64,000 bases of DNA from Candidatus Thorarchaeota archaeon (GTDB lineage Archaea > Asgardarchaeota > Thorarchaeia > Thorarchaeales > Thorarchaeaceae), in NCBI GenBank assembly GCA_029855935.1, contig JAGSHN010000025.1, positions 64,001-128,000 on the forward strand, in the 5' to 3' direction. The translations under genes were made by a program, and so were the position numbers. How positions within the stretch are numbered: the stretch's first letter is position 1; each line of letters starts with the position of its first letter. The notes beneath the pieces are model-generated. The model was not told the DNA's origin and made no database searches. It saw nothing but the letters and a program-made list of their open reading frames with translations. Positions 31,010 to 58,024 of the stretch are shown here, piece by piece.

Positions 31010-31199
31010 CCTGTCCCACCATACGATTGGGTCGAGCGGCGACCGAGAGAGACGAGGTCATCGACCCGGTCTTGGATGTCTGTTGGCACTTCACCAAGAT
31101 CTCCCGCGCTGATTTGACCACCATCCTTAATTGTGATACCACGGGGAGCAGACAAGACTCCTCACGTGCATCGTGAATCGCCAAGGAGTTGATACCGAG
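31010..31199 (+). promoter_or_regulatory. Structured 5' leader of trpS
   Basis: TTTTAT box at 30981; stems GGGTCGA/TCGACCC, GTCTGT/GCAGAC, CTCCCG/CGGGGAG, GACTCCT/AGGAGTT. Confidence 0.6.
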
Positions 31200-57148: not shown

Positions 57149-57164
57149 GTTCGTCACACTCCTC

Positions 57165-57400
57165 TGTCTGTGATGTTGGCGGAAGATGCTCTGTCTGAAC
57201 AATGAGACCCGGAGGCTGATTCGTCGAGACCGAGAAGAGTCAGTTCGACCGTCCGCAACAGGCCGGGCAGGACATCAAGAACGAATATGGTTCGGACTGG
57301 ATGGGCCAGGTCCGGAACCAACCTCAGATCCTGCTCGTCATACTCGGTCTCTCTTCTTCTCGGGTTGTCTTCTGTGAGCGCTTCTTCCCACCTTAGAATC
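57165..57400 (-). promoter_or_regulatory. Structured 5' leader of metG (long nested hairpin, apical loop CCCAU)
   Basis: GGAAGA/TCTTCC, ACCCG/CGGGT, GAGACCGAG/CTCGGTCTC, GCAGGA/TCCTGC, TGGTTC-GGAC-TGG/CCA-GTCC-GAACCA; TTATAT box at about 57427-57432. Confidence 0.7.
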
Positions 57401-57565
57401 GACGAAGCTGAGTGCGATGCGACCGGATATAACTGTAACGATGGACTGGCGTTGTTTCAGGCTTGCCGCCACTGGGAGAGAACGTGGCATAGAATGGACC
57501 ATCCAACGCTGAAGTCTTGATGCCACAGATGAGGCTCGCTAGGAGAGCACAGAACCCACATACGC

Positions 57566-58024
57566 TCACACAGGTGGAAACATCAGGACGAGGAACATGG
57601 CAAGTATCCCAAGACCAAGGAACACGCTTGCCGCACGACTCGCCCAATATCTGCGTGCCACAATCTTTGCGTAGAAGTTCGATATGTCAGCCGGGACCTC
57701 AAGCGAACAGACAACAAGCATAGGCTGCAGTATCAGCAGACCAAAGCACAGACTGATCAGTAGAAGGATAGGGGGGACCAGAAAGACGGGCAACCAATAC
57801 CCGACCAGAGTATCAGCAACAGTATGTTTCAGCAACGCAACATAGATTGTGACCAGTCCAGCATCTGTCGGCACAATCACCCTAGAGAAGTCGGTAGCCC
57901 CCCTCAGACCAGACAGGATGAGGTCCGACCTTATCGACAGGAAGAACTCGTCCGTCTTCGACAGCTTCTCGCCAATCAGGGGTTCACGCTCTGCGGATGA
58001 CATATTGTCTATCCCTCTTCGCAA
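57566..58024 (-). CDS. Hypothetical membrane protein (about 3 TM)
   Basis: ORF composition. Confidence 0.55.
   Translation of the reverse strand: MRRGIDNMSSAEREPLIGEKLSKTDEFFLSIRSDLILSGLRGATDFSRVIVPTDAGLVTIYVALLKHTVADTLVGYWLPVFLVPPILLLISLCFGLLILQPMLVVCSLEVPADISNFYAKIVARRYWASRAASVFLGLGILAMFLVLMFPPV

Follow-up and report, generated by a model that had tools for sequence, protein, structure and literature searches.

Does the non-coding DNA upstream of a methionyl-tRNA synthetase gene in a Thorarchaeota genome encode a regulatory leader RNA and, if so, which part of that leader would carry the function? The question is raised by metG in a stretch of 64,000 nucleotides from a Candidatus Thorarchaeota archaeon (positions 64,001 to 128,000 of contig JAGSHN010000025.1; hereafter the window). 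A sequence-only reading had described at this locus a long leader folded into a nested hairpin, with the methionine anticodon CAU displayed in its apical loop. We arrive at a different emphasis. In our reading, to which we give a probability of somewhat more than one half (about 55%), this upstream DNA consists of a promoter and a roughly 255-nt untranslated metG leader; the leader would be an enlarged version, in this genome, of an RNA that Thorarchaeota conserve and that acts in cis on translation. Judging from the relatives compared below, the conserved part is the frame formed by both leader ends, and not the CAU-tipped hairpin. This pattern suggests that the MetRS gene is under a control element not described before.

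The metG locus and its nested hairpin

The product of metG matches the Pfam domains tRNA-synt_1g (class I catalytic; 9e-150), Anticodon_3 and, at its C-terminus, tRNA_bind. Alignment with relatives makes a GTG at 57148-57146 the likely start codon. Upstream of it, the neighbouring minus-strand gene stops at 57566, which leaves about 415 nt of non-coding sequence before metG (Table 1). The closest named relatives of the genome are Candidatus Thorarchaeota MAGs, for example B65_G9, SMTZ1-45 and BC, and its source was probably a metagenome from a hydrothermal vent. ARAGORN detected one tRNA-Met(CAU) in the assembly (G000:C17:179648-179788), which has a long insert and was detected only with introns allowed. 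Neither the initiator tRNA nor the 16S 3' end was found in the assembly, and the MAG is therefore incomplete for stable RNAs.

Table 1. Coordinates of the metG leader, its predicted helices and neighbouring features in the window.
Feature	Sequence	Position	Strand	Remark
metG CDS, methionyl-tRNA synthetase, 687 aa		55085..57148	(-)	Pfam match and alignment with relatives
Leucine-rich-repeat protein gene, 638 aa		53168-55084	(+)	Converges on metG 3' end
152-aa ORF upstream of leader		57566-58024	(-)	No Pfam match
Promoter-like box (BRE/TATA-like)	CGTTACAGTTATAT	57427..57440	(-)	CGTTA[C/G]AGTTATAT nearly invariant at family metG loci
Conserved 5' leader motif	UUCUAAGGUGGGAAGAAGCGCUCACAG	57372..57398	(-)	Family consensus AUUCYAAGGCGGGAA-N3-5-RCU(U)CA
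Closing helix P2, 5' strand (5' arm of outermost helix)	GGUGGGAAGA	57383..57392	(-)	Arm located; core base-pair probability 0.94-0.98 in window
Closing helix P2, 3' strand (3' arm of outermost helix)	UCUUCCGCC	57178..57186	(-)	Arm located; varies in relatives, pairing kept
Variable interior		57187..57371	(-)	Unalignable within genus; contains inner helices and putative k-turn
Helix	GCUC/GAGC		(-)	Both arms located
Helix	ACCCG/CGGGU	57365-61 with 57211-07	(-)	Arms located
9-bp helix	GAGACCGAG/CUCGGUCUC	57351-43 with 57234-26	(-)	Arms located
Helix	GCAGGA/UCCUGC	57334-29 with 57272-67	(-)	Arms located
Apical hairpin	UGGUUCCGGACCUGG-CCCAU-CCAGUCCGAACCA	57288..57320, loop 57301-57305	(-)	Lineage-specific; z -2.4 on either strand
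Ribosome-binding motif	AGGAGUGUGAC	57153..57163	(-)	GGAGYGUGA invariant in 42/42 leaders
trpS box		31112-31134; relatives L127-L149	(+)	Comparison of 24 genomes

Much of what the sequence-only reading described is indeed there: the hairpin sits in a metG leader of about 255 nt, the minus (mRNA) strand contains all nine arms of its helices where they had been placed, and the apical loop is CCCAU. The hairpin is real, yet the fold as a whole is not significant against shuffled sequences. The 236-nt stretch folds at -79 kcal/mol, compared with -73.3 +/- 4.7 kcal/mol for dinucleotide shuffles (z -1.2), and 26 of 200 shuffles did equally well; the opposite strand gives a z of 0.0 and the whole leader in the window one of -0.3. 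The structure as originally drawn reaches -54.4 kcal/mol, 25 kcal/mol above the minimum. Only the apical hairpin taken alone exceeds chance, equally on both strands.

Comparison with close relatives separates the outermost helix from everything inside it. The outermost helix holds up as the local copy of a closing helix, P2, that is conserved in Thorarchaeota metG leaders, whereas the inner nested helices and the CCCAU loop are a lineage-specific filling of a variable interior. The four leaders of the source genus cannot be aligned in this interior, and only a CAGGA...GUCCUGCC pairing is visibly common to the window's leader and L013. The CCCAU loop occurs only in the source genome, and three same-genus leaders (L010, L013, L015) have neither hairpin nor loop. 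The sequence-only reading took the loop for an anticodon mimic that would be refuted if its CAU were not conserved in relatives; the relatives compared do not conserve the loop, and on that reading's own terms the mimic is not supported. Across the family, CAU is found in predicted hairpin loops in 6/16 genera and ranks 18th of 59 triplets, that is, without enrichment. The k-turn proposed for the middle of the stem meets a similar fate: the motif GAGUAUGACGA / CUGACUC is present (57345-57335 and 57243-57237) but inside the segment that cannot be aligned within the genus, and the conserved 5' motif shows no requirement for a G-A tandem. The possibility that the region is a MITE or another dispersed repeat found no backing either, with a self-match only in the 2.97-Mb genome and zero matches in 60 relatives in a DNA search with the 421-nt intergenic region.

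The conserved frame in Thorarchaeota

Conservation emerged when the metG loci of 36 family genomes were retrieved by protein and their upstream regions then compared. The same upstream architecture is found at metG in all 29 family loci with sufficient upstream sequence, and further loci brought the final set to 42 unique leaders from 16 genera. The frame begins with the promoter-like box CGTTASAGTTATAT, which is unique in the source genome, where the combination of box and downstream motif is likewise restricted to metG. We infer a transcription start about 24 nt downstream of the box, near 57403. The 5' leader motif consists of a near-invariant, purine-rich AAGGCGGGAA followed by RCUYCA, and its GGCGGG lies at a fixed spacing of 40-44 nt from the box. 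From GGCGGG to the ribosome-binding site the distance is 136-156 nt in 15 of the 16 genera and 198-231 nt in the source genus; the interior in the window is therefore enlarged. The frame ends with GGAGYGUGA, a few nt upstream of the start codon. We rejected GGAGUGUGA as the general Shine-Dalgarno (SD) form of the genome, given that just 6 of its 21 sites genome-wide precede an ORF. Its invariance at metG therefore suggests a specific role.

The element appears to be confined to one family and one gene. A strict pattern, AGGCGGG-N125-155-GGAGYGTGA, occurs in 45/76 family genomes versus 2/224 genomes of the phylum's other families, the latter being a chance level, as control patterns are equally low. 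The leader was found in named Thorarchaeota MAGs and is absent from the Hermodarchaeota metG locus and from more distant archaeal metG loci. Apart from chance-level extras, the 5' motif occurs only at metG in the source genome and 40 further family genomes, and is thus effectively single-copy in these sequences. Rfam covariance models gave zero matches in the window region at E values up to 10, and none at the loci of 12 relatives at E values up to 1. Neither a cis-regulatory RNA of an archaeal aminoacyl-tRNA synthetase gene nor one particular to the Asgard archaea turned up in the literature searched, and the leader element is apparently undescribed.

The start of metG shows variation of its own. 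The codon aligned with the metG ATG is CTG in many relatives and TTG or GTG in others, and these altered starts lie just 3' of GGAGYGUGA (L014, L019, L020, L023, L025-L027, L029, L031, L033, L036 and the g5 loci). In most such relatives an in-frame GTG within GGAGYGTGA is a possible substitute start; in L031 this GTG is out of frame, and CTG is therefore the sole candidate. A four-codon frame, (A/G/U)UG-NNN-GGA-GYG-UGA, which reads MxG(V/A), ends 4-7 nt before the metG start at several loci (L011, L012, L014, L020, L023, L025, L026, L031, L033, L036, L051-L055). We also observed that GUUAUAU of the box (57433-57427) can base-pair, three G-U pairs included, with GUGUGAC in the ribosome-binding motif (57159-57153). 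Both are invariant (columns 22-28 and 247-253 of alignment A1). This may be no more than coincidence; alternatively, it may hint that transcripts reading through from the upstream gene include the box.

Between the two ends little is shared. Enrichment of k-mers in the interior barely exceeds the null, and UGCAGUG (near -38) and CUAGG (near -26) keep a consistent position in only part of the genera. A resemblance of GCAGUGG..CUAG to the 5' part of tRNA-Met was considered as tRNA mimicry and dropped, as it falls within the background given by other tRNAs. Four genera have a second perfect CCGCC mid-leader, about 80-86 nt before the SD and within a hairpin loop in two of them (L020, L023, L025, L028, L032, L033, L051, L054); it is a possible alternative partner of GGCGGG.

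Is a conserved leader simply what synthetase genes have in these genomes? A comparison is offered by the regions upstream of trpS in 24 Thorarchaeota genomes. Beyond a box, ACCAYCA-NN-CTTAATTG, which lies roughly 70-95 nt ahead of the start codon, they have little in common. As trpS leaders conserve only this promoter box, leader conservation is not general in these genomes. The earlier proposal that three synthetase leaders each display an anticodon is weakened by the same comparison: the supposed 'CCACCAUCC loop' of trpS is part of the conserved promoter-like box and is therefore likelier a promoter or operator element than an RNA loop that displays an anticodon.

A further element recurs around metG in several genera. 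A perfect palindrome, (G)GAACACGTGTTC(C), also seen as GGAACACGTGTTC, lies within the leader (L025, L028, L032, L033, L035, L038) or just upstream, before the box (L026, L029, L033, L034); it is absent from the window. The source genome has it twice, 195 nt apart (G000:C17:157902 and 158097, equivalent to L150:2403 and 2598). One copy is at the 3' end of a preceding 122-aa ORF, the other in the gap before a gene resembling indolepyruvate/2-oxoacid:ferredoxin oxidoreductase, which follows a class-V aminotransferase. The palindrome has the look of an operator at which a transcription factor would control an amino-acid regulon.

The closing helix and rival explanations

The evidence for an RNA rather than a DNA element comes from the way in which the two ends of the leader pair. 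In single-sequence partition-function folds of the 42 leaders, P2 is predicted in nearly all, joining GGCGGG to a C/U-rich strand, mostly with a probability above 0.9. This C/U-rich strand precedes the ribosome-binding site by 11-20 nt, or by 32-40 nt in two genera, and varies among relatives as CCCGCC, CCUGCC, CUCGCC, CCCGUU, CUUGUC and UCCGCU. Read as mRNA, and only so, such C-to-U changes preserve G-C or G-U pairs, which argues that the pairing takes place at the RNA level, on the mRNA strand. A second helix, P1, is predicted to join the extreme 5' end to the sequence immediately ahead of the ribosome-binding site, or in some genera to the site itself. Its many distinct, complementary versions include GCAUUCU/AGAAUGC, ACAUCUCU/AGAGAUGU, ACAUUCCA/UGGAAUGU, UUUACAG/CUGUGGA, ACCUAC/GUAGGU and UCCACC/GGUGGA.

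An alignment-free test, in which the 5' segment of each leader was paired with its own 3' segment or with that of other genera, gave -15.8 kcal/mol for cognate and -12.9 kcal/mol for non-cognate pairing, and 0 of 20000 genus-level derangements were as good. For P1 alone the values are -8.4 and -6.2 kcal/mol, respectively, and in the source genus P1 cannot be distinguished in this test. When 15 leaders from 7 genera are aligned with MAFFT on sequence alone, standard pairs make up 77% of the P1 register versus 28-53% in neighbouring registers; three P1 pairs change on both sides, and column shuffles match the observed values in 11-14 of 1000 cases. Compensatory changes thus support the closing helix, but not the interior helices. 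Leaders fold better than their shuffles in 15/16 genera (mean z -1.2), the exception being the source genus, with z values from -0.5 to +0.75. RNAalifold found no consensus structure in MAFFT alignments of 25 and 15 leaders, in which the variable interior misaligns. Within genera there are hairpins with some compatible changes. The closest same-genus pair, L070 and L071, has 19 differences, of which three fall in predicted pairs, all G-U/G-C compatible, and no predicted pair is compensatory on both sides.

Could the conserved blocks nonetheless work at the DNA level alone? The TATA-like box would then serve as promoter, AAGGCGGGAA (roughly +12 to +22) as the operator of a transcription factor and GGAGYGUGA as ribosome-binding site, with a structurally idle leader in between. 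The constant 40-44 bp between box and GGCGGG suits such an arrangement, as does the invariance of GGCGGG although its RNA partner varies; so do the clear palindromic operator GGAACACGTGTTCC that relatives bear in or near the leader, trpS having a conserved promoter box of its own, and the outcome with RNAalifold. The DNA-level reading explains the invariance and spacing of the 5' block, but not why the C-to-U changes preserve G-U pairs solely in the mRNA sense, why the 5' end co-varies with the segment before the ribosome-binding site, or why the distance from GGCGGG to that site is held in 15/16 genera despite free sequence. The stability of the leaders relative to shuffles, again in 15/16 genera, also speaks against it. 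We regard it as unlikely, with perhaps one chance in a handful. A riboswitch that gates the ribosome-binding site in response to a metabolite (methionine, SAM or a compound related to them), or a sensor of tRNA-Met that does so in the manner of a T-box, seems to us less probable still. The metG context would suit such a ligand, the closing helix frames conserved single-stranded motifs, and both a possible alternative partner of GGCGGG (the CCGCC in four genera) and a possible anti-SD are at hand. Yet the interior varies freely in sequence and length, unlike known aptamers, Rfam has no match, and the element is single-copy per genome and not a regulon. A conserved specifier-like AUG or UGGN element is absent and, when the 5' half of the leader is compared with tRNAs, tRNA-Met ranks only 30th of 39.

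Two more specific proposals fare worse. In ribosome-mediated control of the leader-peptide type, a short upstream reading frame would be translated ahead of metG; six genera have an AUG-NNN-GGA-GYG-UGA frame of four codons overlapping the ribosome-binding site, and many relatives seem to start metG at CUG, UUG or GUG right after its stop. We nevertheless hold this to be very improbable, as this genome has no such frame, nor do at least 7 of the 16 genera (g1, g4, g5, g9, g10, g11, g15), a Met-rich frame is conserved nowhere among the leaders, and U4+ tracts, which are possible archaeal terminators, are absent here and in several genera and not conserved. Least credible of all is that MetRS represses its own mRNA by binding the CCCAU hairpin as an anticodon-arm mimic, with L7Ae on a k-turn mid-stem. 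CAU is the established MetRS identity triplet, the enzyme bears anticodon-binding and tRNA_bind domains, and the apical hairpin is indeed present and, taken by itself, stable (z -2.4). Nonetheless, hairpin and loop are missing in three leaders of the same genus and their segment cannot be aligned, the hairpin is just as stable on the opposite strand, and hairpin loops across the genera show no excess of CAU. The hairpin's loop measures 5 nt, whereas an anticodon loop has 7 nt, and its distance from the ribosome-binding site is about 140 nt; the k-turn motif is within the same non-conserved segment. The eye-catching CAU structure is probably not the functional part, and experiments are better directed at the conserved frame.

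A possible switch and its relation to known systems

How might the conserved leader RNA work? It would act in cis on the initiation of metG translation, with the closing helix holding the transcript's 5' end against the base of the ribosome-binding site. GGAGY has its complement in the conserved RCUYC, by which it could be hidden in a different fold; since the closing-helix and anti-SD pairings would cross, they would be alternatives. A factor would shift the balance between the two, and MetRS itself, tRNA-Met or a methionine-derived metabolite are candidates. MetRS, if it is the factor, may bind the conserved core rather than the CAU loop.

Signs of the anti-SD pairing can be sought in the leaders. 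The RCUYCA tail pairs with the SD region at a mean z of -1.23, negative in all 16 genera, compared with +0.26 for an interior control. Both sides of this pairing are invariant, and the two candidate anti-SD segments, being invariant, yield almost no co-variation. A flanking R/Y position is A-U, G-U or G-C and never A-C in the 42 leaders, with an estimated genus-level p of about 0.06. Equilibrium folding gives RCUYCA:SD pairing a probability of about zero and favours the closed form, and the predicted accessibility of the SD in the window flips with the assumed transcription start. Column scans further showed CAUUCU to be complementary to GGAGUG in some genera. The 5'-terminal 14 nt were considered as a family-wide anti-SD and set aside, with a mean z of only -0.32. 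The leader may be a Thorarchaeota-specific riboregulator that reads the charging state of methionine, by way of MetRS, tRNA-Met or a methionine-derived metabolite, and alternates between the closed helix and the anti-SD pairing to open or shut the ribosome-binding site. This is a tentative proposal that we think has well under an even chance of being right.

To our knowledge, cis-regulatory RNAs are rare in archaea. Were the riboregulator proposal true, no synthetase-specific cis-regulatory RNA would have been described in archaea before this one, which belongs to an Asgard lineage. As a metG-specific, family-wide leader with a co-varying helix, it offers a testable entry to the tuning of translation enzymes in the closest prokaryotic relatives of eukaryotes.

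Several known systems resemble the metG leader in part. The T-box riboswitches of Firmicutes, including those of metS/metG, are likewise long synthetase-specific leaders with conserved blocks between variable helices. The metG leader, in contrast, has no Rfam T-box match, specifier loop, T-box sequence, terminator or antiterminator; it serves one gene per genome in an archaeal host, in which the trpS leaders share no common motif with it. SAM-III (SMK box) and other SD-sequestering riboswitches also combine a methionine-related gene with an upstream segment complementary to the SD, as RCUYC is to GGAGY here, but there is no similarity in sequence or model, and in the metG leader anti-SD pairing is disfavoured in equilibrium folding. 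Among archaea, the L7Ae k-turn leader and ribosomal-protein leaders are the few known protein-bound structured 5' leaders (PMC5539422, PMC6298567, PMC7247131). Those leaders use a conserved k-turn or an rRNA mimic, whereas the k-turn-like motif of the metG leader is not conserved and its core has no tandem G-A. The remaining comparison is with the operator of E. coli thrS, through which threonyl-tRNA synthetase regulates its own translation. In thrS, a bacterial system, conserved anticodon-arm mimics abut the SD; the archaeal metG leader has a single anticodon-like loop, which is non-conserved and about 140 nt distant from the SD. What the two have in common is a structured 5' leader that adjoins the ribosome-binding site, a place at which, as in thrS, protein binding would compete with the ribosome.
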